From assembly GCA_002898295.1 (NCBI GenBank), contig BEHX01000003.1, positions 108,754 to 172,753 on the forward strand: a stretch of 64,000 nucleotides of DNA. The letters are read 5' to 3'. Source of the DNA: a bacterium HR21 (lineage in GTDB: Bacteria > Bacteroidota > Ignavibacteria > Kapaibacteriales > HRBIN21). The notes beneath the pieces were generated by a model. It saw nothing but the letters and a program-made list of their open reading frames with translations, searched no databases and was not told where the DNA came from. Within the stretch, counting starts at the first letter, position 1. Each line of letters begins with the position of its first letter. Positions 12,874 to 52,879 of the stretch are shown piece after piece. The translations under genes were made by a program, and so were the position numbers.

Positions 12874-13455
12874 ATGGACCGAGAGAAACGATATCGCGAC
12901 TTCGAACGGGAAGCCCTCCCACATCTGGACGCGGTCTACTCCTTTGCCCTCTACCTGTGCCGCGACCGGGAACTTGCCCGCGACCTGACGCAGGAAACCT
13001 ACTTGCGTGCCTGGCAGAGCTGGGAAAGCTTCCAACCCGGGACGAACTGTAAGGCGTGGCTGCTGACCATCACACGCAATCTCTACATTACGCACTACCG
13101 CCGTCGGCAGCGTTCTCCGGAAACGCTTCCCTATACCGAACAGGAAGACGAGGAGGAGCTCCCACCACCCCTGGAAGCAGCTACCCCATCGGTCGAAGAG
13201 GAGCTTTCCCGAACAGCGCTCGATGAGGAAGTCCTCCGGGCGCTCAATGCCCTGCCTGAATCTTTCCGGACAATCGTCATTCTCTGCGACCTTGAAGACC
13301 TTTCGTACGAAGATGTTGCCCGCATGCTGGGCGTCCCTGTGGGAACGGTTCGCTCACGGCTTCACCGGGCACGCGCTCGCCTGGCACAGCTCCTGCAAGA
13401 GTACGCCCGGCACCGCGGCTGGAACGTCTCTGACAATCCCTCTCGACAGCAATGA
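12874..13455 (+). CDS. ECF RNA polymerase sigma factor
   Basis: FEREALPHLDAVY, DLTQETYLRAW, KAWLLTI (region 2). LSYEDVARMLGVPVGTVRSRLHRAR (region 4). 193 aa. Confidence 0.92.
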   Translation: MDREKRYRDFEREALPHLDAVYSFALYLCRDRELARDLTQETYLRAWQSWESFQPGTNCKAWLLTITRNLYITHYRRRQRSPETLPYTEQEDEEELPPPLEAATPSVEEELSRTALDEEVLRALNALPESFRTIVILCDLEDLSYEDVARMLGVPVGTVRSRLHRARARLAQLLQEYARHRGWNVSDNPSRQQ

Positions 13456-16318: not shown

Positions 16319-17695
16319 ATGGCGCTTATCTGTTCCGTATCCGGACTACGCTTCACGCTGGAGGACTTCTCCCCGGAGCTCATCGAGGGGATGCTGCGCT
16401 CGTTCTGCCGGCGCCTTCCTGAGGGCACGCTCGCTGTTGGGTGGGATGGACGCCAAGGGGCAGAGCAGCTCGAGGAGTTCGCGGTAGCCATCTTGCAGAC
16501 GGAGGAACGCCGCATCCACCGTCTGGGGATTGTGCCGACCCCGACGATCCAGACGTGGATTGCCCGACGGCGACTTGCTGGTGGGATCGCCATTACAGCG
16601 TCACACAATCCCGCCGATTGGCACGGGTTGAAGTTCTTCGGTGCCGATGGGCTCACGCTCGACGCAACGCTCTTCTACCGCGAAGCCCGCTCCGGCGGTG
16701 CTCCGCACCCCAACGGGCACCAGCACGGCTTCCACCCCGTGCGCTGGATGCACGCCCAAGCAGTGGCAGAACACCTCCGCAGCCTCTGGCGTCCCCGCTG
16801 GCTGCGGCAGCTCGGAGAACGGATTCTCCCGGAGGGCTTCCACGTCGTTGTCGACGCAGTCAATGCCTCTGCCTCTTCGATTCTCCCCCAGCTCTTACAG
16901 CAGCTGCGCTGTCGTCTCACCCTCCTCCACGCCGATGGAAGCGGCATCTTCCCCCATCCGCCAGAACCGCTGCCGGAGCACCTCCAGGAACTGGCAGCCT
17001 GGGTCCGCCGAACGGGAGCCGATCTCGGTCTTGCCATAGACCCGGATGCCGATCGGCTCGTGCTGGTGGACGAAACGGGCACCTGCCTCTGGGAAGAACT
17101 CACCATTGCCCTGGCAATGCAGGCAGTCCTGGAAAACCGGCAGGCAGCCTGTGGGAAAGACTATCAGCCGGTGATTGTGGTCAACTACTCGACGAGCTCC
17201 GTTGTCGACGCCGTTGCCCGAACCTATGGCGCCCGCGTGCTCCGCTCTCCCGTGGGAGAAGTCAATGTCGTCCATCTGCTCCGTCAGACCCGGGGGGTTC
17301 TCGGGGGCGAAGGCAGTGGAGGGGTGATCGTGCCGCATGTCCACTACGGGCGTGATGCCCTGGTGGGCACTCTCCTCATCTTAGGACTGCTGGCACAAAA
17401 GCAGCGACGGCTCTCCGAACTGGTCGCCGAGCTTCCCCGACCAATCATGCGCAAACACGTTTTTGCCCGCCCCGAGTCACTTGCGCCCTTGTTCGAGCAG
17501 CTTCTCCGCCGGCTTACGCCGCAAGCGGCGGAAATCCGCCGCGACGATGGGCTCTACGCCCGCATTGGCAATGGATGGCTCCACCTGCGGGCATCCAATA
17601 CGGAGCCGATCCTGCGCTTCATCGTAGAGGCTCCGACACGGGCAGAGGTAGAGCAGCTGGAGGCACTGGTACTCCCGTTTCTGCAGCAGCGGTAA
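16319..17695 (+). CDS. Alpha-D-phosphohexomutase (phosphoglucosamine mutase/phosphomannomutase)
   Basis: TASHNP catalytic Ser loop, DPDADR metal loop, GGEGSGG, RASNTEP. Confidence 0.9.
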   Translation: MALICSVSGLRFTLEDFSPELIEGMLRSFCRRLPEGTLAVGWDGRQGAEQLEEFAVAILQTEERRIHRLGIVPTPTIQTWIARRRLAGGIAITASHNPADWHGLKFFGADGLTLDATLFYREARSGGAPHPNGHQHGFHPVRWMHAQAVAEHLRSLWRPRWLRQLGERILPEGFHVVVDAVNASASSILPQLLQQLRCRLTLLHADGSGIFPHPPEPLPEHLQELAAWVRRTGADLGLAIDPDADRLVLVDETGTCLWEELTIALAMQAVLENRQAACGKDYQPVIVVNYSTSSVVDAVARTYGARVLRSPVGEVNVVHLLRQTRGVLGGEGSGGVIVPHVHYGRDALVGTLLILGLLAQKQRRLSELVAELPRPIMRKHVFARPESLAPLFEQLLRRLTPQAAEIRRDDGLYARIGNGWLHLRASNTEPILRFIVEAPTRAEVEQLEALVLPFLQQR

Positions 17696-20546
17696 GGTCG
17701 TCGGCACGGCGCCGGAGAGCCTCAGCCCGGGCATGTTGCCCCCGGAGCTCAGCAGCATAGGCTGCCTCCAGCAAGAGTTCTGGCTCTTCGTCCCCCTGTT
17801 GGAGAAGCTCCTGGTACAGCGGATCGGCTTCCTCAACCCAGCCGCCGAAGAGGCATGCCCGAGCGTATTCTCGCAGCAGGCGCTGCCGAGAGAGCTCCAA
17901 CACACAGCGAAAGCGCTCCTCGTGCCAGTGGTCAAGCAGGTGCTGTAGGATCTCTCGGCTCCTCTCCCATCGTCCCCGCCACGCCTCAAGCAGTGCCGCA
18001 CCGTAGAGCACATCTGGAGAGTTACTGCTGAGCTCGAAGGCGTGGTGCCACCACCGCTGCGCTTCTTCCCCATCGCCAGCACTCAGCTTCAGAAGTGCCA
18101 GTTGCAGGTAAGCTCGACGCCGGTATTCCAGCGGCATGCCCTCCGCCTGGCTCACCGCCTGCTCATACCACTGGTAGGCATGGGCAAGCTGACCCGCAGC
18201 CAGAGCTTCCTCTGCGCGGGCAAGCAGGATGCTGCCATCGTGAGCATCGGGCAAGCGCTCCTCTGCCTCCCGGGACAGAGAGGTACCGCAGAGCACATCA
18301 ATGCGGGTAAGCAACCGCACCGTTGCCCGTTTCCACGTCCACTGCTGCCGAGCGCGCCCGGCAGCCCGGATCCCTTTGATACGACATACTGCGGGCTCCT
18401 CGTAGAGCTGCCGCAGCAGCTGGACCAGTGCCTCGCTATCTGGTTCCAGCAGAAAGGCTTCGTTCGCCATCGGGAGCCCATTGAGCGTCCATCCCAGAGA
18501 CCGACGCTGCGCCGGAAGACGCCAGCCAACGCTCTCATCCACGAAGTCATCCGTTGCGCCTCCAGCCGTGACGATGACCGGAAGCCCGCACGCCATTGCC
18601 TCCAGAGTCGGCAGCGAAAAGCCTTCGCCCCGGTACGGGCTGACAAATACTGTACACGCTCGGTAGAGGGCTGCCATTTCCTCCTCCGTGAGCACCTGCT
18701 CCACGTAGCAAATCTCCGGCGCTTCCGGCTCCCGGCAGAGCCGCTCGATGAGCTGCCCCATTGTCATGCCCTGGTAGAACGTCGTGCTGCCGAGCTCTTT
18801 GATGACCAGGCAGACATCATCGGCAGCGGAGAATGCCCGGAGATATGCCCGGAGGAGAATGTCCACTCCCTTCCGGTAGAGCGTGCCGCCGACGAAAAGG
18901 AGCCGGAAACGCTTCGCCGTCGACAACGGAAAACGCTCCCCATCGGGACGGAAGCGCTGCGGATCGATCCCGTTCGGGATAACCTGCACTTTCTCCGGCG
19001 GTATCCCTGAACGGACGAAGCTCAGGCGCGATGCCGTCGAGGGAGTCCAGATTTCCTCCGCATGCTGGAACGCCGGAAGGTACTTCTGCGGCCAGGCTCC
19101 GAACTCATACGGCTGCATGACAATCCAGCGTGCTCCGGACGGCGGCGGGGCAGGATTTGGCGGCCACTGATGGCGGATCCAAATCGTGGCGGGGCTTGTC
19201 CACCCTTTCCGACGCACATCATGTGCCGCTAGCAGCTCGTAGTCCGCGTGCCCCTCCGGGCTAAATGCATCGGTCTCGTACGGCACCAGCGTCAGCTCTG
19301 CTGAGGTCCCCCGCAGCACATTGAGACAATGCGCCCGGTTGACAATCGCCAGCGAATGGTGCTGGAACTGCGTCCCCTCCCAGACAATGTGGAAAGGCAC
19401 ACCATCCTCCGGCGCTGTGGGCGCAGCTGTGCCAGTTTCAACCTCGACTCCGTTCCACTGCTGAGCATAGGGTGGCAGAATCCCGTCCCGGTCACGCAAT
19501 CGCAGACGGACTCCCGTCCGTTGGTACCAGAGGGCGTGCAGGAGCTTTCCTTTCCACGCTTCACCTGCCCGGAGTTCAAGCTCCACGACAGGCAGCGGTG
19601 GCAGCGGGGGAACGCCCTGGCGGAGCATCCGCTCGAAGGCCTCTGCAACAGCCCCCGGGGATAGCTCTTCCATGCACTCCCGCCGACAGGGCATGCGCCA
19701 ATAGCAATTCAAACACGGTAGGCGCTCATTCCGGAAGAAAGCAAAGGGGATGCCGTAGCCGCCAAACAACAGTGGGTTCGTCACCCCAGCAAGCAGGAGC
19801 GTCGGCTTGCGGCAGAGTAACCGCCCGATGTGGAAGAAAACACTGTCAATGGTAAGGAACGCCGCACATTGAAAGGCAAGCGCTACCTGGAGGCGGAACG
19901 GCACCCGGAGCCGTCCACAGTCGAGGAGCCAGGGAAGCTCCTCGGCGGCAAACGGCTCGGTTCCGAACCAGATGAACAGCGCCTCGGGCAAACGACGGTG
20001 GAGCTCCTGCAGGAGAGCACGCCGATGCGGATAGCTCCGGCGCTCATCCTTCGGGGTCCAGAGCTGGACACCGATGGAGAGACACTCACCATAGGGACGC
20101 AGGAGCGCCGCTGCTGCTTCCGCCTCGGAGGGCTCAACATCGTAGGCAAACTGCGGCTCACCCAACCGAATCCCCGCAATGTTTGCCAGTATCTCCAGCA
20201 GCCCGATGCCATTGTAGTACTCAGGAAGCCGTGCAATAAGCCCCTCATACTCGAGCACAACGTCTGCTGCCGCCCGCGCGTGCGCTTCCTGCGTCCCCCC
20301 AGCAGGCAGAAAGGCAGTGATGGCAGGGTGATGCCGGAAGACCCACTCTGCTGGTTCTTGCCCGCAGAGTACAATCTGCAGGTGTGGGTATTGGCGCTTG
20401 AGCTCACTGACCACCGCCGTCAACAATATCGCATCTCCGATAGCGGCAGTCGGGCAGAAAAGCACCGTCCGCGCCTGGGCATACGGGCGTTCCCAGAACT
20501 CTGCATCGAAGCTTGTCCGAGGTTCTTGGTTTGTGGACATAGCCAT
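17619..20546 (-). CDS. Multidomain glycosyltransferase: GT9-like + GT4 + TPR
   Basis: GT9 start AIGDAILLTAVVSELKRQYP and end CLNCYWRMPCRREC. GT4 motifs LFVGGTLYRKGVD and EGFSLPTLEAMACG. Helical TPR-like tail. Start 20546 or 20540, 975 aa. Confidence 0.8.
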   Translation of the reverse strand: MAMSTNQEPRTSFDAEFWERPYAQARTVLFCPTAAIGDAILLTAVVSELKRQYPHLQIVLCGQEPAEWVFRHHPAITAFLPAGGTQEAHARAAADVVLEYEGLIARLPEYYNGIGLLEILANIAGIRLGEPQFAYDVEPSEAEAAAALLRPYGECLSIGVQLWTPKDERRSYPHRRALLQELHRRLPEALFIWFGTEPFAAEELPWLLDCGRLRVPFRLQVALAFQCAAFLTIDSVFFHIGRLLCRKPTLLLAGVTNPLLFGGYGIPFAFFRNERLPCLNCYWRMPCRRECMEELSPGAVAEAFERMLRQGVPPLPPLPVVELELRAGEAWKGKLLHALWYQRTGVRLRLRDRDGILPPYAQQWNGVEVETGTAAPTAPEDGVPFHIVWEGTQFQHHSLAIVNRAHCLNVLRGTSAELTLVPYETDAFSPEGHADYELLAAHDVRRKGWTSPATIWIRHQWPPNPAPPPSGARWIVMQPYEFGAWPQKYLPAFQHAEEIWTPSTASRLSFVRSGIPPEKVQVIPNGIDPQRFRPDGERFPLSTAKRFRLLFVGGTLYRKGVDILLRAYLRAFSAADDVCLVIKELGSTTFYQGMTMGQLIERLCREPEAPEICYVEQVLTEEEMAALYRACTVFVSPYRGEGFSLPTLEAMACGLPVIVTAGGATDDFVDESVGWRLPAQRRSLGWTLNGLPMANEAFLLEPDSEALVQLLRQLYEEPAVCRIKGIRAAGRARQQWTWKRATVRLLTRIDVLCGTSLSREAEERLPDAHDGSILLARAEEALAAGQLAHAYQWYEQAVSQAEGMPLEYRRRAYLQLALLKLSAGDGEEAQRWWHHAFELSSNSPDVLYGAALLEAWRGRWERSREILQHLLDHWHEERFRCVLELSRQRLLREYARACLFGGWVEEADPLYQELLQQGDEEPELLLEAAYAAELRGQHARAEALRRRADDLTAAAETGVPVPPAALPLPVSEPLR

Positions 20547-20609
20547 GGACACCGCATGTGCTCGTCTTCTGCTCTTGTCATCGGCACATCGGCAGGAAGC
20601 TTGAACAGG

Positions 20610-20942
20610 ATGGTACGCTACGTGGTCATCGCCGAAGTTCCAATCCCGCGGGCAGCAGAGTGGTATACATGGATGTGCCAGCAGCACATTCCTGCCGTGC
20701 TGGCAACGGGCTGCTTCCAGCGAGCCCTTCTCTGGCGGGAAGCTCTGGCTGGCGAGGTAGCGGTGTTCCTGGTTGAGTACGACTGCCTTGACGAATCCGC
20801 CTTCCAGCGCTATCAGGAGCAGTACGCCCCGGCTCTCCGGCAAGACCATGCCCAGCGCTTCGGTGCGGAAGTTCGGCTGCAGCGGCTTCTGCTCACTCTC
20901 CAGTGTACAGTTGAGCCGCCGACCACCCTGGCAACTTCCTAA
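20610..20942 (+). CDS. DUF4286 family protein
   Basis: WYTWMCQQHIPAVLATGCF and YQEQYAPALRQDHAQRFG pattern. 110 aa. Confidence 0.8.
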   Translation: MVRYVVIAEVPIPRAAEWYTWMCQQHIPAVLATGCFQRALLWREALAGEVAVFLVEYDCLDESAFQRYQEQYAPALRQDHAQRFGAEVRLQRLLLTLQCTVEPPTTLATS

Positions 20943-20955
20943 GTTTGCACATGCC

Positions 20956-21735
20956 ATGTGGACAGGTGGGCTTCTCGGATATGGACTTCGGGCAGGAGCA
21001 ATTGTCGGGTACACCATTGCTGCCTCAACGTGGGCTCTCCTGCTGCCGAAGCGAAGGGCTCACCGGCGGCTCCTGGAGGCAGTGCCCGGCTGGGCACAGA
21101 CGATGCTCCGGCTCTGTGGGGTCCACCTCCACGTGGAAGGAGGCGAAAATCTCCCTGTCCAGGAACCGGTCATTTACGTGAGCAATCACAGCAGTCTGCT
21201 GGACATCCCGGTACTGGTTGCTGCGCTCCCCCATCGGCTCTGTTTCCTCTACAAAAAGGGGCTCGAGCGTATCCCCTTCTTCGGCTGGGTTCTGCGGCGG
21301 ATGCCGTACGTCCCGATTACCCGGCGGGCACTGGATGCCCACTGGCAAATGGAACTGACGCGGCAGCGCGTTCGCTCCTATGGGTTATCCCCGGTAGTGT
21401 TCGCCGAGGGAGGGCGTTCTCCGGATGGCTCGGTGCGCCCGTTCCGCCGTGGAGCGCTGATCTTGGCACAGAGCCTCTCGCTGCCGATTGTACCAGTCGC
21501 AATCGCTGGCACACATGCCCTGCTGCCCCCCCACACACTCCGATTCCGTCCCGGCAGTGCCCGCGTCCGCATCGGCGCTCCCCTGGAGGTTCCACCAGAC
21601 CTAGGACGCCGGGCACAAGAGGAATGGCTCCAGGCACTCCGGGAGCGCATCGCCGGTTGGGTTGCGGAAATGTCGTCTCAGACACATCCCCACCAATGGA
21701 CACACGCACCCTCGTGGAACACATCGCTGAACTAG
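20956..21735 (+). CDS. plsC: 1-acyl-sn-glycerol-3-phosphate acyltransferase
   Basis: NHSSLLD (HX4D), FAEGGRS, IVPVAI motifs. Confidence 0.88.
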   Translation: MWTGGLLGYGLRAGAIVGYTIAASTWALLLPKRRAHRRLLEAVPGWAQTMLRLCGVHLHVEGGENLPVQEPVIYVSNHSSLLDIPVLVAALPHRLCFLYKKGLERIPFFGWVLRRMPYVPITRRALDAHWQMELTRQRVRSYGLSPVVFAEGGRSPDGSVRPFRRGALILAQSLSLPIVPVAIAGTHALLPPHTLRFRPGSARVRIGAPLEVPPDLGRRAQEEWLQALRERIAGWVAEMSSQTHPHQWTHAPSWNTSLN

Positions 21736-23395: not shown

Positions 23396-24232
23396 ATGGG
23401 GAAAGTGATTGCCATCGCGAACCAGAAAGGCGGGGTAGGCAAGACCACCACCGCCATCAATCTGGCAGCTTCGCTTGCTGTCATGGAGTATCCGGTGCTC
23501 TTGCTCGACATCGATCCCCAAGCGAACGCTTCCAATGGCTTGGGCATCGAGAGCCGGCGGCTGGACAAGACCACATACGAGGTCCTCATCGGCGGTATCC
23601 CCATTCAGGAGGCAATCGTCCCGACAGAACTCCCTTTCCTCTGGGTGTTGCCTTCCCACATCAACCTGGTCGGGGCAGAAATCGAAATGGTGGATCTCCC
23701 CCAGCGCGAGCGCATCCTCCGCACCGTGCTCGAAGCAGTTCGGCGCAAGTACAGCTTTATCCTCATCGACTGCCCCCCGTCCCTGGGTCTTTTGACGTTG
23801 AACGCTCTGACAGCGGCTGATTCAGTGCTGATTCCGGTTCAGTGCGAGTACTACGCGCTCGAAGGATTAGGGCAGCTTCTCAATACGATTGCCATCGTCC
23901 GGCGCCATCTCAACCCTGGGTTGGACATCGAGGGCGTGCTGCTCACAATGTACGACGGTCGGCTTCGGCTCTCCAACCAAGTCCTGGAAGAAGTACGCCG
24001 CCACTTCGGAGCGAAGACCTTCCGCACGGTCATCGCTCGCAATGTCCGCCTCTCGGAAGCTCCAAGCCATGGGAAACCTGTCCTCCTCTACGATGCCCTC
24101 TGTCAAGGCACGCGCAACTACCTGGAGTTGGCGCAGGAGCTCTTAGAACGCAATCCCGAACTTCTCCAGCCGACCTCAGGACACGGAACGGCACTGCCAG
24201 AAAATGTCCCAACAGGCAGAGAAGTCCAATGA
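23396..24232 (+). CDS. parA: Chromosome partitioning ATPase ParA/Soj
   Basis: [49 protein letters not shown]. Confidence 0.96.
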
Positions 24233-25221: not shown

Positions 25222-25667
25222 GAGGCGACCACCTGACGGAGCTGCCCGATATTCTCCACACTACCACACTCCGGGTCCGCTACGCCGACACTGACCAGAT
25301 GGGCGTGGTCTACTACGCCACGTACCTGGTGTACTTCGAGAGCGGGCGGACAGAGCTCCTGCGTGCCTGCGGAATCCCGTACTCTGAGCTGGAAGCCCAG
25401 GGATACCGATTGCCGGTTCTGGAAGCCCATATCCACTACCACGCCCCGGCTCACTACGATGAGGTTCTGGTGGTACAAACTCGTTATCGCCCGCGCTATG
25501 CCCCGACACTCTGTCTGGAATACGAAATCCGGCGCCGTGGAGAGCTCATCGTGACTGGCTCGACCACCCACGTCTTTATGGACGCCCGCACGTGGCGTCC
25601 TGTACGTCCGCCGGCAATATTCTGGGAAGCCATTCGGCACTACGCTCTCTGCCGCGAGCGTTCCTGA
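25218..25667 (+). CDS. YbgC/FadM family acyl-CoA thioesterase
   Basis: RVRYADTDQMGVVYYATYLVYFESGR hot-dog signature. Confidence 0.9.
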   Translation: MRGDHLTELPDILHTTTLRVRYADTDQMGVVYYATYLVYFESGRTELLRACGIPYSELEAQGYRLPVLEAHIHYHAPAHYDEVLVVQTRYRPRYAPTLCLEYEIRRRGELIVTGSTTHVFMDARTWRPVRPPAIFWEAIRHYALCRERS

Positions 25668-26587
25668 TGAGACGTCTTCTTGCCGGGACACTCCTCACCG
25701 CTGTGGCCAGCCTAGCGCAGCCAGCAGCATTTCAGTTCTTGCGCACCGTTGCTCTCCCACGGGCAGCAGCGCTGGCACAAGCAACTGTTGCCCTCCCCGG
25801 TGATGCTGGGAGCCTGTTGCTCAACCCCGCAGTCGGCGCAACGCTGACAGGGCGGGAACTCAGCTCGACCTTCCTCAAGCACGTCGCCGATATCAACGCT
25901 GGTGCAGTGCTCTTCTCTGGGTTGCCACTCTGGGGCGGGCGCGCTGCCGTTGCTGCTGTATACCTGGACTATGGCACCTTTGAACGGCGCGATGCCACCG
26001 GGCGCGCTCTTGGGGAATTCTCCGCCCACGACGTGGCGCTCACCCTGTTCTACAGCGACACGCTCGAACCCCGCCTCCTCTACGGCGCTGCAGCAAAGCT
26101 GGTATGGGAACGCCTGGAAGCCCAGAATGCATGGGTGCTGGGGCTCGATGCCGGATTCCTCTACCACTTCCCCGATAGGCGCACCAGCGTCGGTATTTCC
26201 CTGCTCCATGTCGGAACCGCCCTCCGCCGCTTTGCCCAAGAGCCTCTGCCGCTGCCGACCGATCTCCGCATTGGCTTGACGCACTTCCTACAGGGCTTGC
26301 CCGCGGTCTTCTCCTTCAGCTTCGGGCGCCTCACTGAGTACACGCCGTCGTTGTGGCAGAAATTTGAGAATTTCGCTGTCGGTGTTGAGTTCCACCTCAG
26401 CCCTGCAGTGCAGCTGCGGTTTGGCTACGACAACGCGCTGCGCCGGGCTGCTCCGGCACGTCAGCGCGGCGCTACAGGGCTTGCACTCGGGGCAGGAATC
26501 GCGGTGGCAGATATCCGCATTGACTATAGCACCACGCTGGTGAGCGCTGCTATGCTCCATCGGCTGGGGGTGCAGGTGGGTATGTAG
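25667..26587 (+). CDS. PorV/PorQ family outer-membrane protein
   Basis: Signal peptide, FLRTVALPRAAALA, LLLNPA, YLDYGTFERRDATG, LPTDLRIG, IDYS. Barrel ending in VQVGM. Confidence 0.75.
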   Translation: MRRLLAGTLLTAVASLAQPAAFQFLRTVALPRAAALAQATVALPGDAGSLLLNPAVGATLTGRELSSTFLKHVADINAGAVLFSGLPLWGGRAAVAAVYLDYGTFERRDATGRALGEFSAHDVALTLFYSDTLEPRLLYGAAAKLVWERLEAQNAWVLGLDAGFLYHFPDRRTSVGISLLHVGTALRRFAQEPLPLPTDLRIGLTHFLQGLPAVFSFSFGRLTEYTPSLWQKFENFAVGVEFHLSPAVQLRFGYDNALRRAAPARQRGATGLALGAGIAVADIRIDYSTTLVSAAMLHRLGVQVGM

Positions 26588-34897: not shown

Positions 34898-36220
34898 TCA
34901 GAAGCCCATCTGCACCGCAGCCCGAACGCCGACAACCGTCTGCCGTTCAATGCGATTCCCCTGTGTTCGGATAACCGTGATTTGATCCCACTGGTGGAGC
35001 AGCACATAGGCACCGACACCCTGCTCAATGGCGACCGGCACATCGAGCCAGATAGGAACTTCAGCAATGAGCTTGACACGCCCATCGAGGAAAGAGAACG
35101 CCACCATGGGCAGAAGCTCCTGGATGGGTTTATCCCCAATGGGCTGGGGCACGCTTTGACTCAATCCCTGTCCCATCGCCGTATCGGGACGCAGGAAGCT
35201 ATAGCGGATACCGCCCGTGACAGTCTTCCACGACACTTGCGCCGCAACCCATGCCCCGAGCGCAGAGAGCTCTCCGTACGTGTTCTTGTAGCGTGCCCAG
35301 AGTGCTTCTCCTTCCACCGAGAGGCGTACCGGGTCGAGAGCAACCGAGAGGGAGAGATCCCCACCAGCTGCCAGGAACTCTCCAACCTCCAGAGGACGCC
35401 GGGCAATGTAGGGGTTCCAGTTCGCCTGCAGCAGCAGCGGCTTATCCTTGGAGCGGACGTTCAAAACCGTTGAGTGCCCTGTCAAGGCGTCCTTCGAGTA
35501 GAGAACGTTGGCAGCCACATTCCAGGCAACGTCTTGAGTCGGACGCGGAGCGGGGAAGAGCCATGCGTTGCCTTCAAATCCACCCCGGAGTCCAACACGG
35601 GCGACCACCAGCGGCAACATCTCAACAACCTCCGGCAGATACCGCTCCGGCACATCGCGCCCGACCCCAGTCTGGATAGCCAGAGCGAAATCCAGCATCT
35701 CTCCAACCGTCCCATGGAGTGCCCCACCCACATCCCGTCCCATGCCGAAAAAGAGCCACACAGGCGAACGCTCCGCAAAGCTCATGTCCTGATACTTCAG
35801 CAGCTGCTCTCGTCCAAACGGCACCTTGAACTGCCCGAGCCGGACGTACAGCTGGCGCGCGAAAGGCAGACGGACATCCCCGTAGAAGTCCAGCAGCGTG
35901 GGGTTCAATCCCCAGGTGGGGTTTGTCGCTGGAGAGAGCGGAATTTCCGCCTCGCGTCCGGTTAGCGTCAGCTCACTGTAGAGGTGCATGCCCTTGTAGT
36001 CAGCCGCGAGGCTAAGCCGGGCATTCCGGAGGAAGTGGAAGAGCTGTGTCTTATGCCGATACGGATCATCCACTCGCTGCACAAGCCACAGCGGGCGGAT
36101 CATTCCTCCAAAGCGCAACGTGACATCTCCCGCCGTCACCTCTGCCGCCGAGAGCCTAACCGGCGCAACTGCCAGCAGCGCCCCAGTGGCAAGTCTGAGC
36201 GTCAACGAGTACCGCATCAT
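34898..36220 (-). CDS. Porin (OprO/OprP-like family)
   Basis: Signal peptide, FLRNARL, LLDFYGD, RLGQFKVPFGREQL, FAERS, GRDVG. C-terminal Phe. Confidence 0.75.
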   Translation of the reverse strand: MMRYSLTLRLATGALLAVAPVRLSAAEVTAGDVTLRFGGMIRPLWLVQRVDDPYRHKTQLFHFLRNARLSLAADYKGMHLYSELTLTGREAEIPLSPATNPTWGLNPTLLDFYGDVRLPFARQLYVRLGQFKVPFGREQLLKYQDMSFAERSPVWLFFGMGRDVGGALHGTVGEMLDFALAIQTGVGRDVPERYLPEVVEMLPLVVARVGLRGGFEGNAWLFPAPRPTQDVAWNVAANVLYSKDALTGHSTVLNVRSKDKPLLLQANWNPYIARRPLEVGEFLAAGGDLSLSVALDPVRLSVEGEALWARYKNTYGELSALGAWVAAQVSWKTVTGGIRYSFLRPDTAMGQGLSQSVPQPIGDKPIQELLPMVAFSFLDGRVKLIAEVPIWLDVPVAIEQGVGAYVLLHQWDQITVIRTQGNRIERQTVVGVRAAVQMGF

Positions 36221-38799: not shown

Positions 38800-39549
38800 T
38801 CAAATGACCTTTGCTTCCTCATGCAGGAGGCGAATCAGCTCGTCGAGGTCGGCGTCGGAAGAGCCCAGAATCTTCCCGGCACGACGCCGCTGGGGCAATG
38901 CGAGCGCGACAATCTCACTGAGCGGCTCCCCCTCCGGCGGCGCAAGCTCATCAATCGGCTTCGATTTCGCCTTGATGATGTCCGGGAGCTTCGGATACCG
39001 CGGCTCGTTGATGCCCTTCTGCACGCTGAGTACGCACGGGAGACGGGTCTCCACCACCTCCTTGCCGCCTTCAACATCGCGCTCGACGACCACCGAGCCG
39101 TCTTCGGCAAGGGTAAGTCGCGAGACCACCGACACGGACGGCAGCCCCAGAAGCTCCCCCAGCGTTGAAGGCATCTGGAAGGAGTCGAAGTCAATGCTCT
39201 GCCGCCCCGTGAGGATAAGTTCTGCCTGGTACTGCCGAGCCACCTGCGCTAGAGCCTGTGCCACGCCAAAGGAGTCCAATGTCCACTCATCCCGGACCAG
39301 CAGCGCCCGATCCACACCCATTGCGAGCGCTGTGCGGAGGATCTCCTTTGCCGCCTCAGGTCCGACACAGACGGCGAGCACCTCTCCGCCGAAGCGCTCA
39401 CGCACCCGCAAGCCTTCCTCGATGGCGTACTCGTCATAGGGGTTCAAGATGAACTTCACTCCCGTCCGCTCAATCTGCTTGCCGTCAGGGGCAATTTGCG
39501 GGCGTGTCGCCGTATCGGGCACGTACGAAAGGCAGACCATGACTCGCAT
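38800..39549 (-). CDS. etfB: Electron transfer flavoprotein beta subunit
   Basis: YVPDT, NPYDEYAIEEG, ALAMGVDRA, GRQSID, NEPRYP. Confidence 0.96.
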   Translation of the reverse strand: MRVMVCLSYVPDTATRPQIAPDGKQIERTGVKFILNPYDEYAIEEGLRVRERFGGEVLAVCVGPEAAKEILRTALAMGVDRALLVRDEWTLDSFGVAQALAQVARQYQAELILTGRQSIDFDSFQMPSTLGELLGLPSVSVVSRLTLAEDGSVVVERDVEGGKEVVETRLPCVLSVQKGINEPRYPKLPDIIKAKSKPIDELAPPEGEPLSEIVALALPQRRRAGKILGSSDADLDELIRLLHEEAKVI

Positions 39550-39585
39550 GCATCCACCACCGATGTTGTTTCACCACGGAAGGCA

Positions 39586-39593
39586 CAAAGCTA
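39586..39593 (-). promoter_or_regulatory. -7 promoter element (TAGCTTTG) of etfBA
   Basis: Exact TAnnTTTG between the flhA stop and the etfB start. Confidence 0.55.
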
Positions 39594-39644
39594 CGGACAT
39601 TCACCCAACGAGCTCTGCAACAGAGCTCATCCCCTGTGCCTCCG

Positions 39645-41738
39645 CTACAGCTGAACGGTTGCCACGACATCCACGGGTGTATCCGCAGGCAGCTCCGTAT
39701 AGCTCAGCACCGCCACCATGGGGAATGTCGTTGCCAACATCCGGTACAGGTACGGGCGCAGCGGTGTTGAACACATAAGCACAGGCGGATAGCCAAGTGC
39801 AATGAGCTGTTCCAGCGCCCGGGCAACTGCTTGCCGCAACTGTTGCACCAGCTCAGGCGGCAACCCTAGAGTTGCTGTCCCAGCGGGCTGAGGTGCCTGC
39901 TGCAGCTGTGTCGTCAAGAGCCGCTCCACTTCCGGGGCAAGTACTGCAACGTGGACTACCCCCCGGGCGTCTTGGTAAAGTTTCCGGAGTGTCTCTCCCA
40001 GAGCATGGCGAACATACTCGGTGAGGACATCGGCATTCTTGGTCGTCTTCGCGTACTCCAGGGCTGTCTCCACAATGAGTGCCAGATCTCGGATTGGGAC
40101 GCCTTCGCGGAGAAGGTTCTGCAATACATGCTGCAGCGTCCCCAGCGGGAGATTCTCGGGGGTCACTTCCTCGACCAGTGCTGGGTACTCGCGGCGCAGA
40201 TGTTCCAGCAGTTGACGCACATCCTGCCGCGTCAGCAGCCGCCAGGCATGCCGGCGGAGCAGCTCTGTCAGGTGCGTCACCAGGACAGTTGCCGCCTCCA
40301 CCACCGTGTAGCCCATCATTTCCGCTTCCTCCCGCTGGGCAGCGGGAATCCAGACAGCGGGCAAACCAAAGACGGGCTCCGTGACATGGATGCCACTGAG
40401 CTCGCCTTCTGCCGTCCCGGGATTCATTGCCATGACCATCCCCGGATAAACCTTGTTGCGGGCAACCTCATTGCCGCGGATGCGAATCAGGTACTCCTCC
40501 GGTTCTAGCCGCAGGTTATCGCGGATGCGCACAGGTGGCAGCAAAACGCCCAACTCTGCTGCCAGCTGTCGGCGGACGTTCGTAATGCGCTGGAGCAGGT
40601 TCCCGCCGCGGGTCTCGTCAACCAAGGGCAGCAGCCCGTAGCCGAGTTCGATTTCAACGGGATCTACCCGCAGCAGCTCCTCCGGGCTGGGTTCAGCTGG
40701 GCGCTCTGGCATGCGAGCACGGGCGGCTTCCTCGGCACGGCGCTGTGCCTCTTGCAGCTGCTGCCGTCGTATCAGAACATAGGCAACAGCACCCAGAGCG
40801 AGAGCCAGCACCAGGAACGGTACCATCGGTAATCCGGGCAAGAATGCCAGCACCAGCGCCGCCACTGCCGTCGCAACGACTGCCCGCGGCTGCTGCCCGA
40901 ACTGCCGCCCTAGTTCCAGCTCCAGATAGTCCCGCGTGGAGGAGCGCGCAACGACCATGCCGGCCGCCACCGAAATGAGCAGCGCCGGAATCTGCGATAC
41001 CAGCCCATCACCGATGGTCAGCACCGTGTACGTCTGCAGCGCCGTCACCACATCCATGCCCCGCTGCGCAATCCCAATGATGAGCCCACCGACAATGTTG
41101 ACCACCGTAATGACCAGCCCGGCAATGGCATCACCCCGGACAAACTTCGCCGCCCCGTCCATTGCCCCGTAGAAGTCCGCTTCCCGAGCAAGCTGCTCCC
41201 GACGCTGCCGAGCTTCGTGCTCAGTGATGAACCCCGCATTGAGTTCCGCATCAATGCTCATCTGCTTGCCCGGCAAGGCATCGAGGGTAAAGCGCGCCGC
41301 TACCTCCGCAATGCGGTTTGCCCCCTTGACAATCACCACGAAGTTGATGAGCACCAGGATGAGGAAAATGACAAACCCGACGACGTAATTGCCCGCCACC
41401 ACGAAGCTGCCGAATGCACGGATAATCTCCCCCGCGTGTGCCTGCCCGAGAATGAGTCGAGTCGTGGCAACGTTGAGTCCGAGCCGGAACAAGGTTGTGA
41501 TCAAGAGCAAGCTCGGGAACACACTCAGCTCGAGCGGATGGCGCACGTAGAGCGCCACCAGCAAGACCAACAGTGAGACCGTCAAGTTGAGCGCCAGCAA
41601 GACGTCCAGAAGCGGCGTCGGGAGCGGGAAAATCAGCAGCGTCAATATCCCCAGGATGCCCACCACCAGGGCAATATCGGGCTGCCGGGACAGGCGCTGC
41701 AACCACGTCGGTGCCGGAAGTCGGGCTTGCACCATCAC
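39645..41738 (-). CDS. flhA: Flagellar-type export gate protein FlhA (SctV family)
   Basis: FPSLLLITTLFRLGLNVATTRLIL, FHIPEP motif RIAEVAARFTLDALPGKQMSIDAELNAG, FYGAMDGAAKFVRGDA, GDGLVSQIPALL. Full cytoplasmic domain, 697 aa. Confidence 0.97.
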   Translation of the reverse strand: MMVQARLPAPTWLQRLSRQPDIALVVGILGILTLLIFPLPTPLLDVLLALNLTVSLLVLLVALYVRHPLELSVFPSLLLITTLFRLGLNVATTRLILGQAHAGEIIRAFGSFVVAGNYVVGFVIFLILVLINFVVIVKGANRIAEVAARFTLDALPGKQMSIDAELNAGFITEHEARQRREQLAREADFYGAMDGAAKFVRGDAIAGLVITVVNIVGGLIIGIAQRGMDVVTALQTYTVLTIGDGLVSQIPALLISVAAGMVVARSSTRDYLELELGRQFGQQPRAVVATAVAALVLAFLPGLPMVPFLVLALALGAVAYVLIRRQQLQEAQRRAEEAARARMPERPAEPSPEELLRVDPVEIELGYGLLPLVDETRGGNLLQRITNVRRQLAAELGVLLPPVRIRDNLRLEPEEYLIRIRGNEVARNKVYPGMVMAMNPGTAEGELSGIHVTEPVFGLPAVWIPAAQREEAEMMGYTVVEAATVLVTHLTELLRRHAWRLLTRQDVRQLLEHLRREYPALVEEVTPENLPLGTLQHVLQNLLREGVPIRDLALIVETALEYAKTTKNADVLTEYVRHALGETLRKLYQDARGVVHVAVLAPEVERLLTTQLQQAPQPAGTATLGLPPELVQQLRQAVARALEQLIALGYPPVLMCSTPLRPYLYRMLATTFPMVAVLSYTELPADTPVDVVATVQL

Positions 41739-42841
41739 CGTGTCCGCAAGACCTGTTGCGCTTTGGCTCGGTTGTAGACCCGGTATACGTATGCCAGCAC
41801 CTCTGCCACTGCGGCAAAGAGGCGCTCAGGAATTTCCTGATCCACATCCACGCTCCGGTACAGGCTCCATGCCAGCGGAGGGTTTTCCACAATGGGGACC
41901 TGCGCCTCACGGGCAAGGCGGCGGATCTGCTCGGCAATGCGGTCAGCTCCCTTGGCAACCACAATTGGTGCCCGCATCTTCCCCGGGACATACTGCAGAG
42001 CTACGGCGACGTGCACTGGATTGGTCACCACAACATCAGCCTGCCGCACCCGCTGGAGCATCCAACGGCGCAGCCGCTGCTGCATGAGACTCCGCAGACG
42101 TGCCCTCAGCTGCGGATCACCTTCCGTTTGCTTGAGCTCATCCCGCACCTCCTGCCGTGTCATCCGCAAATCCTCCCGGTAGCGATACCGCTGGTAGAGG
42201 AAGTCCGCCAGGGCAATGAGCAGGAACACCACCGCAATTTTCGCCGTCAGCTCCAGCAGGATGCGCCAGACCACACCGAGCGCTTGCGGCAGCGGCACGA
42301 CACTGAGCTGCACGAGCTCCTCCAGGCGTGCAACGAAGACCTGCGCCCCGACGACAAAGAGGAGTGTCACTTTGAGCAGGCTCTTGAACAGCTCCACCGC
42401 AGAGCGCCCGGAGAAAAAGATGCGCCGCAACCCCGTCAGCGGATTGAAAACCGTCTGAAGCGGTAAGCCCTGCGGGAATTTCTTGGTCGCAAGACGCAAC
42501 CCAACCTGGGCAATTTCTGCCCCTACACCCAGGACCAGGAGCGTTCCCAGAATCGGCACAGCGAGGAAGAGCACATGCGTGACGAAGTCCCACGCCACCC
42601 TGAGAAGGCTGGAGTCATCGAGCCGGAGCTGTACGCCCCAGCGTAGGTATTCCTGGAGCACGGCGCGGAGCTGCCGAGCTGCTATCGGCAGGAATGCCCC
42701 GAGCAGCACAACCGCTCCGAGCAGTGCCGCTGCAGCTGTCACATCCGCGCTCTTCGCCACCTGCCCCCGAAGCCGTGCCTCTTCTAGGCGTTTCGGCGTC
42801 GGTGCTTCCGTTCGCTCTTGTCCCTCCGGTGTCTCCGCCAT
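41735..42841 (-). CDS. flhB: Export switch protein FlhB (SctU family)
   Basis: ERTEAPTPKRLEEAR..GQVAKS, four TM segments, MTRQEVRDELKQTEGDP, TNPVHVAVAL, APIVVAKG, ENPPLAWSLY. Confidence 0.96.
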   Translation of the reverse strand: MAETPEGQERTEAPTPKRLEEARLRGQVAKSADVTAAAALLGAVVLLGAFLPIAARQLRAVLQEYLRWGVQLRLDDSSLLRVAWDFVTHVLFLAVPILGTLLVLGVGAEIAQVGLRLATKKFPQGLPLQTVFNPLTGLRRIFFSGRSAVELFKSLLKVTLLFVVGAQVFVARLEELVQLSVVPLPQALGVVWRILLELTAKIAVVFLLIALADFLYQRYRYREDLRMTRQEVRDELKQTEGDPQLRARLRSLMQQRLRRWMLQRVRQADVVVTNPVHVAVALQYVPGKMRAPIVVAKGADRIAEQIRRLAREAQVPIVENPPLAWSLYRSVDVDQEIPERLFAAVAEVLAYVYRVYNRAKAQQVLRTR

Positions 42842-42847
42842 TCCTCC

Positions 42848-43642
42848 CTAGGGTGCCAGGGTACGAACCACGAGGAGAACCTCCTGCTGGAGGACCTGCA
42901 CAGCAGTCCGCAGCAACACGACAATGAGCGGCACACTGACGAAGAGCATGCCAATACCGATTGCAGCTTTGAGTGAGAAGCTCAGCATGAAGATGTTGAT
43001 CTGGGGCGCCGTCCGTGCCAGGAGCGCCAGCCCCCAGAGGCTAACGAAGAGCGCTGCCATGACTGGTGCAGCAATGCTGACTGCCAGTGCCGTCAGTGCT
43101 CCAACCCAGCGCACCAGCTCCGGAGCCGTCACTGCCGGGAAAGTCAGCGCCGTCAGTGGGAGCAGCCGGATACTCTCGGTGAGTGCGACAAGCAGTGTCT
43201 CCACTCCCCCGAGCCCGAAAAAGAGCATGAGCGCAGCGAAGGCGAAGAATTCCCCCACCAACGTTGGGAAGCCCCCGAGATTCGGGTCGAAAAGCAGTGC
43301 CGTCTGAAAGCCAATATCCATGTCGAGCAATCCGCCGGCAAAACGTGCGGCAGAGAGAACGCCGGAGGACAGGAAGCCGATCAATGCCCCAATGGTAGCC
43401 TCCTTCAGCGCCAGGAGCAGCAACACCCACGGATGGAGCTCCAGCGGTGGCTGTGGCGGCAGCGCCGGCAGCATCCCGACGACAATGACTAGCGCCAACG
43501 ACGCCCTGAAAAGCAGTGGAAGCCCACCGTGACTCAGAACAGGTGCCGTCAGGAAGAGGGCACCAACCCGCACGAAGGCTAATCCGCCTACCACCACCAG
43601 CTGGAAAAGCTGCTCCAGCGCCGCCGCATCGAGAGATACCAT
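42848..43642 (-). CDS. fliR: Export gate protein FliR (SctT family)
   Basis: FVRVGALF..APV, KEATIG..IG, AGGLLDMDIGF, LLARTAPQINIF. Confidence 0.92.
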   Translation of the reverse strand: MVSLDAAALEQLFQLVVVGGLAFVRVGALFLTAPVLSHGGLPLLFRASLALVIVVGMLPALPPQPPLELHPWVLLLLALKEATIGALIGFLSSGVLSAARFAGGLLDMDIGFQTALLFDPNLGGFPTLVGEFFAFAALMLFFGLGGVETLLVALTESIRLLPLTALTFPAVTAPELVRWVGALTALAVSIAAPVMAALFVSLWGLALLARTAPQINIFMLSFSLKAAIGIGMLFVSVPLIVVLLRTAVQVLQQEVLLVVRTLAP

Positions 43643-43645
43643 TGC

Positions 43646-43912
43646 TCACCGCAGCGTTGGGATCAGCTGGAAGACCCCGAGAATGTAGCGCTTGAGCGTC
43701 CCCACCATGAACGGCAGCATCAGGACCCCCACCAGCATCAACACCACCAGCTTCGGCACGAAAGTCAGCGTCTGCTCTGAAATCGTCGTCGCAGCCTGGA
43801 CAATGGCTATCACCAGCCCCACAACGAGCGCCAACAGCAAAAGCGGTCCGGCAACCACCAGCACGTGGAAGAAAGCTTCCCGTACCAGAAACACCACCAT
43901 CTCCTCGTTCAT
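43646..43912 (-). CDS. fliQ: Export gate protein FliQ (SctS family)
   Basis: GPLLLLALVVGLVIAIVQAATTISEQTLTFVPK. 88 aa. Confidence 0.95.
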   Translation of the reverse strand: MNEEMVVFLVREAFFHVLVVAGPLLLLALVVGLVIAIVQAATTISEQTLTFVPKLVVLMLVGVLMLPFMVGTLKRYILGVFQLIPTLR

Positions 43913-43921
43913 CGCGGCACC

Positions 43922-44689
43922 TTATGGCGAGAGGATACCCTGCAACAGCGAGCCAATCAGCAGATTCCATCCATCTACGAGCACGAAAAGCAGAATCTTC
44001 GCCGGCAATGATACCAGCTGCGGCGGCAGGAGAAAAATCCCCAGCGACAGCAGCACACTGGCAATGATGAGATCGATGACCAGGAAGGGCAAAAAGAGCA
44101 GGAAGCCAATCTGGAAGGCAATCCGCAACTCACTCAACGCGAAGGCGGGGATCAGCGCCCAGGTGCTCACCTCCTCAGGTGTCTTCGGGCGCTGTCCTCC
44201 GCTCAGGCGGATGAAGAGTGCCAGGTCCTCCTGCCGCACCCGCTTGAGCATAAACTCCCGGAAAGGGCGCACCATGTTGTCTACCGCCTGCTCCTGCGTG
44301 ATTTCCTGCCGCAGGTACGGCTGCAACCCCTTCTCATTGGCTTCATTGAGCACAGGCTGCATGACGAAGAAGGTCAGAAACAGCGCCAGCCCAGTCAAAA
44401 GCTGGCTAGGAGGCTGCATCTGCGTCCCGAGTGCCTGCTTCAAGAAGAAGAAGACCACGACAATGCGCGTAAAGCAGGTCATCATCACCAGAATGGACGG
44501 TGCCAGAGTGAGCACTGTCAACAACAGCAGGAGCTGCAGCGTGAGCGAGAAATCCTGCGGCGAGCGTGCCGCCTCCACCCCCAAGCTCAGCTTCGGAAGC
44601 GGGAGCGGCATGGGCTGCTGCGCCCACACTGCCGTCATCCCCCCGAGGAGAGCAACTCCGACTCCAACCCACAGGATACGCCACACCAT
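43922..44689 (-). CDS. fliP: Export gate protein FliP (SctR family)
   Basis: LAPSILVMMTCFTRIVVV, QPPSQLLTGLALFLTFFVM, PAFALSELRIAFQIGF, PFLVID, LPAKILLFVLVDGW. N-terminal signal-like extension as in flagellar FliP. Confidence 0.96.
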   Translation of the reverse strand: MVWRILWVGVGVALLGGMTAVWAQQPMPLPLPKLSLGVEAARSPQDFSLTLQLLLLLTVLTLAPSILVMMTCFTRIVVVFFFLKQALGTQMQPPSQLLTGLALFLTFFVMQPVLNEANEKGLQPYLRQEITQEQAVDNMVRPFREFMLKRVRQEDLALFIRLSGGQRPKTPEEVSTWALIPAFALSELRIAFQIGFLLFLPFLVIDLIIASVLLSLGIFLLPPQLVSLPAKILLFVLVDGWNLLIGSLLQGILSP

Positions 44690-44723
44690 CTCGCACTGCT
44701 CTGGAATGCTGCGGAGAGCACAC

Positions 44724-44740
44724 TGCCAATCTCCGTGCCA
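44724..44740 (-). promoter_or_regulatory. Candidate sigma54 (-24/-12) promoter of fliP
   Basis: TGGCAC-GGAGA-TTGGCA versus consensus TGGCAC-N5-TTGCW; the conserved -12 C is G here. 34 nt upstream of the ATG. Confidence 0.35.
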
Positions 44741-44907
44741 GCCCCCGATTTCGCGCCGAAGTCCTTGGGAATCAATGCATTCCTCATGTCCCCGCTGCCT
44801 GTCCCTCTGGCGGAAGAATACCGGCATTGGGGAGTCTACCACACTGAAGCGCACCCAGCCTCGTCCCCCGCCTACGTTGGGAAAGCGACACTGCTCCCCC
44901 TCTGTGC

Positions 44908-51211: not shown

Positions 51212-52879
51212 TCAGAAGCTCAGACCGTAGTTGAGGCTGCTCTGGAGTTCCAGAAATGGACGTCGCCCGGCACGTTCGGAACGGTTCAGGAAGGTGTTCC
51301 ACGTCAACACCCCCCAGCGGTGGAGGTGGTACGTCAGGGAGAGGCGGAGGTTCCACTGCGTATCCCACCCCAGTGTGTACATCCGTGACCATCCTCCGGC
51401 AAAGCTCCCGGTGAGCCGCTGCGGCACGAGAGGGAAAGAGACCGTCTCCGAGAGCATCCACAGGCGGGTCTCCAGCTGCGCAGCCGTCTGCGTGTAGGTG
51501 CCGGTAGTTGTCAGCGTCAGAGCAGAGGACAGCAGCAGGCTATGGGAGAGCAGCAGCGAATGCGTTGTCTGCCGCGTTGCTGCACGCGTGATGGGATTCT
51601 GGTCGGTGGTGTTCGCGAAGTTGTAGCTTCCCGTTACCACGTGTGTTCCGCCCAGTCCAGAAAACTGCCATCGCGGAGCCACGGAGAAGCTCTGGTAGAC
51701 ATTCTGCACCCGGAGGCTATCCTGCTCGTGCTGCATGCGAGTGCCGTAGTTCGTGTAGTGGAGGTCCACCCCAAAGGCAGAGGAGGGGTGCCAGCCCAGA
51801 GCCGCCGCGCTAATGAGACGCCGCGTGGTACCGAGCCGCGTATTGCGGAGATTGTTCCACTGGAGCCCACCGGAGAGGCGGATCGAGACGGTATTCTCTG
51901 CTAGCATCAGGCTTGGTGCTACCGCTACCTCAGCGACGTCATTGGCCAGCCAAGGATAGCCCAGAGAGACAAATCCCGGACCAATCCAGCGTCCACCGAG
52001 CGCAATCGAGACTGCCTGTGTCGGGGTCACTATGACCGACACCCGCGCTGCTCCGTCGAGATTCGAGGAGTAACGGGGGACGAACACCCACCGAGGGACC
52101 CCGAGATCTTTCTCCGGAGCCCGAAGACTTGAGGAATAGGCCCCCAGCGCTAGCTCTCCCTGGAGGCTCACCGCCGTCCCCAACGGCGCCCGGAAAGAGA
52201 GAGCAGCAACAGCATTGTCCTGTGCCGGGGTCACGATGGTATCGGCACGCAGACTATCCCGCACAACCCGCAGGAGGCGAATACTGGTGGTGTCATCGAG
52301 CAAGCGGACGTAGTGGAGGAGGAGCTCAGCTCCCGCCTCCGTAGTAAAGCCGAGGGAGACACCCCACGCCCAGCGGCGGTAGGTTCCGGGAAAGCTGCTC
52401 AGCGTGTCGAGCGCTCGTGGCTGCTGGACAACGCCGTAGAACGCCTTGAGGCGAAAGATCCCCGGCGAAAGCTCCACGCCACCCCCGAGAATGCGCGGCT
52501 CACCGAAACTCAACTCCGACAACGACAGCGAGAAGTATCCCCCGTGCAGCCGCAACCAGGAGGTAATCCGGGGACTGAGCCCAAACTGGTTGAACGGCTG
52601 CTGGAAGCCCACCGGATACCCCGTCCGTGCCCCTGTCTGCGTGCTCAACGCCAGCTCGAAGGGAAGCTCCACCTGACCGAAGAGCTGCACGACGGGACGG
52701 AAGAAAAGACGTGCCCCATAGCGGGGCAGAAAACGCTGCACCGGCGCATCACCAGAGCTGGTATATGCCTCCACCGTTGCACTCAGAGAACCTCGTAACT
52801 GAATCGGTGTGGTGTGCTGCTCCTGTGCCCACGCACTGCCGAGCATACTCACAAGCACGATGACCCATCCACGCCGCAT
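51212..52879 (-). CDS. Hypothetical large outer-membrane beta-barrel protein
   Basis: 555 aa. Signal peptide, many amphipathic strands, QQPFNQFGLSP motif, C-terminal YGLSF. Confidence 0.75.
   Translation of the reverse strand: MRRGWVIVLVSMLGSAWAQEQHTTPIQLRGSLSATVEAYTSSGDAPVQRFLPRYGARLFFRPVVQLFGQVELPFELALSTQTGARTGYPVGFQQPFNQFGLSPRITSWLRLHGGYFSLSLSELSFGEPRILGGGVELSPGIFRLKAFYGVVQQPRALDTLSSFPGTYRRWAWGVSLGFTTEAGAELLLHYVRLLDDTTSIRLLRVVRDSLRADTIVTPAQDNAVAALSFRAPLGTAVSLQGELALGAYSSSLRAPEKDLGVPRWVFVPRYSSNLDGAARVSVIVTPTQAVSIALGGRWIGPGFVSLGYPWLANDVAEVAVAPSLMLAENTVSIRLSGGLQWNNLRNTRLGTTRRLISAAALGWHPSSAFGVDLHYTNYGTRMQHEQDSLRVQNVYQSFSVAPRWQFSGLGGTHVVTGSYNFANTTDQNPITRAATRQTTHSLLLSHSLLLSSALTLTTTGTYTQTAAQLETRLWMLSETVSFPLVPQRLTGSFAGGWSRMYTLGWDTQWNLRLSLTYHLHRWGVLTWNTFLNRSERAGRRPFLELQSSLNYGLSF

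Follow-up and report, generated by a model that had tools for sequence, protein, structure and literature searches.

The 64,000-nucleotide stretch analyzed here (positions 108,754 to 172,753 of contig BEHX01000003.1 from bacterium HR21, assembly GCA_002898295.1; referred to as the window) contains the five genes of a type III export gate, fliP, fliQ, fliR, flhB and flhA, standing apart from any other flagellar gene. This raises the question whether such an isolated block serves a flagellum at all. A sequence-only reading of the window had left two answers side by side, an unusually fragmented flagellar regulon or a minimal type III export core kept for a role other than motility. We consider the block, with a probability of about 90%, to be an ordinary operon for the flagellar export gate, carried by a hot-spring bacterium that is flagellated or at least encodes a flagellum. 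The regulon is indeed fragmented, with flhF/flhG/fliA and flgG on other contigs, but it is not unusual: the layout is the rule in the Kapabacteria, is typical of the class and has already been published for this group. The minimal export core found no support.

All five genes are encoded on the reverse strand. The fliP gene (43922..44689) encodes the export-gate pore subunit of 255 amino acids (Pfam FliP, 5.7e-77) and is followed by fliQ (43646..43912; 88 amino acids; Bac_export_3, 3e-22), fliR (42848..43642; 264 amino acids; Bac_export_1, 3.3e-47), flhB (41735..42841), which encodes the 368 amino acid substrate-specificity switch subunit (Bac_export_2, 7.2e-115), and flhA (39645..41735), whose product of 696 amino acids, translated from the ATG at 41735, has both the membrane and the cytoplasmic ring domain (FHIPEP, 2.2e-267). 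The Pfam profiles are covered over 191/191 (FliP), 73/74 (FliQ), 226/230 (FliR), 335/335 (FlhB) and 655/657 (FlhA) positions. Because the spacers are only 9 nt (fliP-fliQ), 3 nt (fliQ-fliR) and 6 nt (fliR-flhB) long and the flhB stop codon overlaps the flhA ATG by 1 nt, translational coupling is plausible. The initial description of five intact and tightly coupled genes therefore holds. Of the extent first assigned to the block (39645-44740), the left end is correct and the right end is not, as fliP most likely starts at the ATG at 44689 and not near 44740. The open frame reaches a GTG at 44854, but the N-terminus that directly follows the ATG at 44689 (MVWRILWVGVGVALLGGMTAVWAQQ) resembles a signal peptide, and the same start, giving 255 amino acids, is chosen in public gene calls.

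Pfam scans also confirmed the neighbors that had been named for the block. Downstream of flhA, across a gap of 104 nt, lie etfB and then etfA, and a divergent gene of the arginase family (speB-like) is located upstream of fliP. No other flagellar, chemotaxis or injectisome genes were detected in Pfam scans of the predicted genes of the window, and a six-frame phmmer search of the window with 45 flagellar and chemotaxis proteins of E. coli K-12 returned nothing beyond the gate, in agreement with what had been read from the sequence. Flagellar or injectisome genes were not found in the 10 kb past the left end of the window either. The promoter of the gate operon is presumably located in the 218-nt region between fliP and the speB-like gene (44690..44907, no strand assigned, read directly from the sequence). 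A scan of this region for the sigma-70 consensus found nothing, and visual comparison with the sister species revealed no common motif upstream of fliP. The promoter element that had been attributed to etfB could not be verified; neither a terminator-like nor a sigma-70-like site was predicted in the 104-nt gap between flhA and etfB.

To tell the flagellar from the injectisome type, the five proteins were scored with the NCBIfam flagellar equivalog models and with the corresponding Sct models, each with its curated cutoff. FlhA scored 873.7 with TIGR01398 (cutoff 772.1) versus 654.9 with the SctV model TIGR01399 (cutoff 692.25), FlhB 373.4 with TIGR00328 (cutoff 349.25) versus 295.5 with SctU (cutoff 358), and FliP 268.2 with TIGR01103 (cutoff 217.45) versus 176.1 with the SctR model TIGR01102 (cutoff 208.6). 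FliQ barely exceeded its flagellar cutoff (TIGR01402, 89.3; cutoff 88.9) and reached 45 with SctS (cutoff 76.5). FliR remained under the cutoff of TIGR01400 (144.4; cutoff 168.6), yet this was its best NCBIfam match, SctT being lower (121.9) and also under cutoff. Four of the five proteins (FliP, FliQ, FlhB and FlhA) thus exceed their flagellar cutoffs and all Sct scores are under theirs, which shows that the gate proteins are, by their sequence families, of flagellar and not of injectisome type.

Comparison with E. coli showed that FlhA retains R147, R154, D158, K203, D208, D249, E351, F459 and T490, whereas D456 is replaced by E. In Salmonella/E. coli numbering, R147, R154, D158, K203 and D208 matter for ion-coupled export, and D456, F459 and T490 belong to the chaperone-binding dimple. 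The autocleavage motif of FlhB reads NPVH (residues 274-277, window 42013-42024) in all strains of this species and NPTH in the sister species and the other sampled Kapabacteria. NPTH has been called universal (PMC4875606). NPVH was considered as an anomaly and rejected as such, since the third position varies naturally among FlhB sequences: NPEH, NPDH, NPAH, NPSH, NPIH and NPVH all occurred in the loci that were fetched. By analogy with Salmonella and E. coli, FliP, FliQ and FliR would form a helical pore within the MS ring on which FlhB would dock, self-cleavage of FlhB at NPxH would switch export from rod and hook to filament substrates, and FlhA would form a nonameric, proton-driven ring to which chaperone-substrate complexes are delivered.

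The flhA neighborhoods of relatives were examined over 10 kb on each side, using precomputed Pfam annotation, in five other settings. In all five, fliPQR-flhB-flhA stood alone, with no other flagellar Pfam family within these limits. In Ca. Kapaibacterium sp., Ca. Thermonerobacter thiotrophicus MS-B_bin-24 and GCA_026416955.1 the five genes are located between rsmE/GWxTD and dnaJ-like/relA, in the P0136 lineage they occupy a third distinct neighborhood, and in a sister species with 87% identity the synteny is identical to that of the window. The detached block was found in every sampled Kapabacteria lineage, in three distinct neighborhoods, and the detached gate operon is therefore a lineage trait and the rule in Kapabacteria. 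In most bacteria the block has flagellar neighbors, as the sequence-only reading had assumed. Among the matches listed, other flagellar genes adjoin flhA in 33 of the 37 FlhA loci that extend 8 kb or more in both directions; these loci come from many phyla, and the usual neighbors are fliMN upstream and fliA downstream. In most bacteria flhF-flhG-fliA directly follow flhA. A further degree of separation was seen in GCA_942490685.1 (3.28-Mb contig), in which flhA is wholly alone, apart from flhB and fliPQR, and adjoins response-regulator genes; in several MAGs (metagenome-assembled genomes) labeled Chlorobiota/Bacteroidota flhA is likewise isolated from flhB and fliPQR.

The closest described parallel is Ca. 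Thermonerobacter thiotrophicus, which has the same stand-alone five-gene operon and a FlhA that is 60% identical to that of the window. Its flagellar genes were reported to be present, not organized as one cluster, and constitutively transcribed (Thiel et al., 2019, PMC6338057). Table S1 of that study lists FliO, FliN, FliM, FliG, FliH, FliI, FliJ, FliK, FliE and FlgE on several scaffolds, together with hook-associated proteins, flagellin, FliD, FliS, FlgN, FlhF, a specialized sigma factor and two MotA/MotB pairs. A second Kapabacteria MAG with flagellar and chemotaxis genes has also been described (Kadnikov et al., 2020, PMC7509429). In Ca. Thermonerobacter, FlhF and the specialized sigma factor are encoded together on another scaffold, like flhF-flhG-fliA in the species of the window. 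The two organisms differ in the flanks of the operon, which are rsmE/GWxTD and dnaJ-like/relA in Ca. Thermonerobacter and speB and etfBA in the window, and in composition, the clade of the window having a much higher guanine-plus-cytosine (GC) content (61%) and an R/(R+K) ratio of 0.89-0.92 versus at most 0.70. According to the locus tags in PMC6338057, fliO lies with fliN and fliM on one scaffold of Ca. Thermonerobacter (tags ...618 to ...620). Its flhA, and hence its fliP block, are on a different scaffold (...6124), so that fliO and fliP are unlinked; fliO is absent upstream of fliP in the window as well.

The five proteins also occur in E. coli and Salmonella (fliLMNOPQR, flhBAE), with equal domain coverage, and identity to the E. 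coli proteins is 46% for FlhA, 35% for FlhB and 50% for FliP. In E. coli, fliPQR follow fliMNO and flhBA form a separate operon next to che/mot genes, whereas in the window the five genes are fused into one unit without fliO, fliM and fliN upstream and without flhE. The internal gene order is that of the common layout fliMN(O)-fliPQR-flhB-flhA-flhF-flhG-fliA found in Rhodothermales, Vibrionaceae, Nitrospirota and Verrucomicrobia. The species of the window also has the flhF-flhG-fliA unit of this layout, but moved to another locus, and its gate block is cut off on both sides, unlike the flanked flhA of the common arrangement. Helicobacter pylori and Campylobacter jejuni are fully motile with their flagellar genes, including those of the gate, spread among housekeeping genes over many loci, and fragmentation is therefore compatible with a normal flagellum. 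In these two species flhA, flhB and fliP/Q/R are unlinked from each other, whereas the five genes of the window stay together. Ignavibacterium album, a related lineage of the Fibrobacteres-Chlorobi-Bacteroidetes (FCB) group with flagellar genes, has one large flagellar cluster according to Liu et al. (2012), as cited in PMC6338057; Kapabacteria instead have the detached gate.

Judged from protein identities and composition, the host is a member of a deep-branching, high-GC clade of Candidatus Kapabacteria from hot springs. An identical FlhB was found on hot-spring metagenome contigs and in MAG GCA_030549995.1. The FlhA proteins of the nearest relatives are 81-87% identical, after which identity falls to about 62% for many Kapabacteria MAG proteins, labeled by their sources as Candidatus Kapabacteria, Kapaibacterium or Ignavibacteria. 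FliA identity shows parallel steps (83%, about 73%, then 52%). The clade, with its GC content of 61% and its arginine-rich proteins, is placed outside most other Kapabacteria, which resemble each other more than they resemble it. Contigs of DRR101367 and DRR101361 match the window at 100% identity. Other strains match it at 98-99.3%, among them the MAG, whose gate block is located on JAUQQF010000057.1 (99.3% identical to the window). In one assembly (ENA sample ERZ27245615) the species of the window and its 87%-identical sister occur together, represented by contigs 168 kb and 221 kb long with the same synteny, and bins from such samples could mix both species.

Further flagellar genes of the species were found through run X8 (211 contigs, 1.67 Mb), a near-clean data set labeled as a single organism in which the operon is covered about 14x. 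The X8 sequences were placed on foreign flagellar loci, with a Rhodothermus locus as reference and a likeness of 80%. This gave short matches in flhA and one match inside fliA, located on a contig of 6,040 nt, and the flanks of the fliA match translate into LPERKRLVIV and ELLQLTESR, corresponding to region 4 of sigma-28. A wobble-degenerate pattern derived from the FliA peptides identified two JGI contigs, one of which (L108, GC 0.62) contains both 30-mers exactly. Runs X8, X1, X9 and X4 all contain contigs that match this locus at 100% identity. In the two runs for which depth was compared, the locus is covered like the gate operon (15.2 versus 13.6-14.9 in X8 and 7.7-10.1 versus 8.5-10.7 in X1). 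The exact FliA protein (P0140) is encoded on JAUQQF010000005.1 in GCA_030549995.1, the same MAG in which the gate block was found, and this FliA also occurs in DRR101367, SRR7787343 and JGI 3300022541, all three of which contain window sequence.

The fliA locus (positions 7965-13060 of L109, a locus on JAUQQF010000005.1) comprises an flhF-like gene for an SRP54-type GTPase, a MinD/ParA-like flhG, an open reading frame (ORF) of 84 amino acids and fliA. FliA passes its NCBIfam model (TIGR02479, 222; cutoff 189.6). The small ORF between the flhG-like gene and fliA has no family match. Genes for an HDOD-domain protein and a histidine kinase follow fliA in the same direction and may form a signaling module linked to the flagellar sigma factor. 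A ParA-like gene in the window itself (23396-24232) was considered as flhG and rejected, as it resembles chromosome-partition ParA.

A rod gene was found in the same run. An X8 contig of 40,169 nt (depth 15.3) gave two collinear matches inside flgG of an Opitutaceae locus, which place the gene around contig positions 35,245-35,642, and their flanks translate into the FlgG motifs VVRRPDGTVL[YTRDGSF] and [QRAYEINSK]IRTADELLQ. The fragments are closer to FlgG than to FlgF of E. coli. A database search with the two FlgG fragments returned 26 matches. All 26 are short proteins with the rod C-terminal domain (PF06429), and among those that bear a name most are annotated as FlgG. These results show, on sequence evidence, that predicted flhF/flhG/fliA and flgG genes are present in the species of the window. 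The sequence-only reading had held that a full set of flagellar genes elsewhere in the genome would make this an ordinary dispersed operon, and such genes have been found in part, namely regulators and a rod gene; no gene for the MS or C ring, the ATPase, the hook, the filament or the stator was shown.

Several points weigh against an ordinary flagellar operon. Placing run sequences on foreign loci gave no direct evidence of FliF, FliG/M/N, FliH/I/J, hook, flagellin or MotAB in the species. This method is insensitive: the fliP and flhB genes of X8 itself escaped it with every reference, so that its negatives carry no weight. With the same limitation, four further foreign flagellar loci (L088, L037, L099 and L053) gave nothing beyond flhA. 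The GTPase of the fliA locus has FlhF (TIGR03499) as its best family and is below the cutoff, and the species' own full-length protein was not among the matches of the FlgG-fragment search. The assignment of the fliA contig to the same genome rests on MAG binning, equal depth in several runs, composition and co-occurrence, and the window comes from a 179,848-nt contig of a conspecific assembly and not from GCA_030549995.1 itself. Finally, metatranscriptome X20 gave only short, spurious partial matches to the operon.

The strongest alternative is a gate-only or strongly reduced system. The clade would then have lost filament and/or motor (stator), and the gate, with some rod parts and FlhF/FlhG/FliA, would be a reduced, flagellum-derived secretion device. 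Reduced flagellar sets in some endosymbionts provide a precedent. Within about 74 kb of the gate there are no structural flagellar genes, only FlhF, FlhG, FliA and FlgG have been shown for the species besides the gate, and the clade is a long branch whose FlhA is only about 62% identical to that of all other Kapabacteria. Against this, relatives with a full set show the detached layout too, and the low sensitivity of the detector explains the missing detections. FliA directs late-gene transcription and FlhF/FlhG determine flagellar placement and number; a bare secretion core would hardly need them. The chaperone dimple of FlhA is also kept (F459, T490; D456 changed to E). We therefore regard a reduced secretion device as improbable. 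On the reading as an ordinary flagellar operon, we infer a complete set of structural genes and a functional flagellum; the relative with the same layout, Ca. Thermonerobacter, has the remaining genes. In Kapabacteria the five gate genes would form a self-contained transcription unit split from the other flagellar genes, which would be scattered around the chromosome in other small clusters; in this species flhF-flhG-fliA are located on a separate contig and flgG on yet another.

Another explanation that had been raised is that the block is the decaying relic of a lost flagellum under relaxed selection. Its isolation from other flagellar genes and the FliR score under the NCBIfam cutoff would fit such decay. 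Selection was examined by comparing the window with two strains, one from ENA (L001) and one from SRR7787343 (L005), and with the sister species. Between strains, flhA differs by 61 synonymous and 6 non-synonymous changes, a ratio of non-synonymous to synonymous polymorphism (pN/pS) of about 0.04, flhB differs by one synonymous change, and fliP, fliQ, fliR and speB are identical. Non-synonymous divergence (dN) from the sister species is 0.086-0.099 for FliP, FliQ and FlhA, which rank with the best-conserved proteins of the neighborhood, 0.19 for FlhB and 0.31 for FliR, compared to 0.095-0.41 for the housekeeping neighbors. Since synonymous divergence (dS) from the sister species has reached saturation (about 2 or more), dN/dS is a rough measure and the within-species pN/pS is the cleaner one. 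Every strain, and the sister species as well, has all five gate ORFs intact, and translational coupling is kept. Purifying selection on the gate genes is strong. Because there is no sign of relaxed constraint, with a pN/pS of about 0.04 and a dN comparable to that of housekeeping neighbors, the relic explanation is refuted and we consider it highly improbable. The strain differences are unevenly distributed: variation is mosaic over window positions 38800-41735 (flhA and etfB), and etfB differs from the ENA strain by 21 synonymous and 3 non-synonymous changes. The pattern suggests a stretch of about 3 kb that was recombined within the species.

Least likely of all, and close to negligible, is that the gate belongs to an injectisome, the non-flagellar kind of type III secretion system. 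Each of the five proteins has its homolog among SctR, SctS, SctT, SctU and SctV, and they do match those models, but the flagellar model outscores the Sct model for each of them with every Sct score under cutoff, no secretin, SctJ, SctN or needle genes occur in the roughly 74 kb scanned around the block, and the nearest relatives are annotated as FlhA and come from organisms with reported flagellar gene sets.

Several other features were noted outside the operon. A protein of the PorQ/PorV family is encoded at window positions 25592-26587, and a second PorV/Q-like protein adjoins a Por_Secre_tail protein beside the fliA locus (L109, 14505-15942), so that the organism appears to combine parts of type IX secretion with flagellar genes. 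Three ORFs of coding-like composition, at 51212-52879 (555 amino acids), 34898-36220 (440 amino acids) and 13452-14243 (263 amino acids), had no match to a Pfam or NCBIfam family. The region 17619-21017 encodes a protein of 1132 amino acids with a GT4 glycosyltransferase domain at about residues 600-900, the other approximately 800 residues of which match nothing.

The importance of these findings lies mainly at the level of annotation. Since the gate operon is routinely detached in Kapabacteria, a "lonely" export gate in a genome of the FCB group should not be taken for a novel secretion system. The locus also adds another deep thermophilic lineage of the Bacteroidota/Chlorobi radiation with flagellar genes and type IX secretion components, which is modestly interesting for tracing how motility evolved in a superphylum whose cultured members mostly lack flagella.

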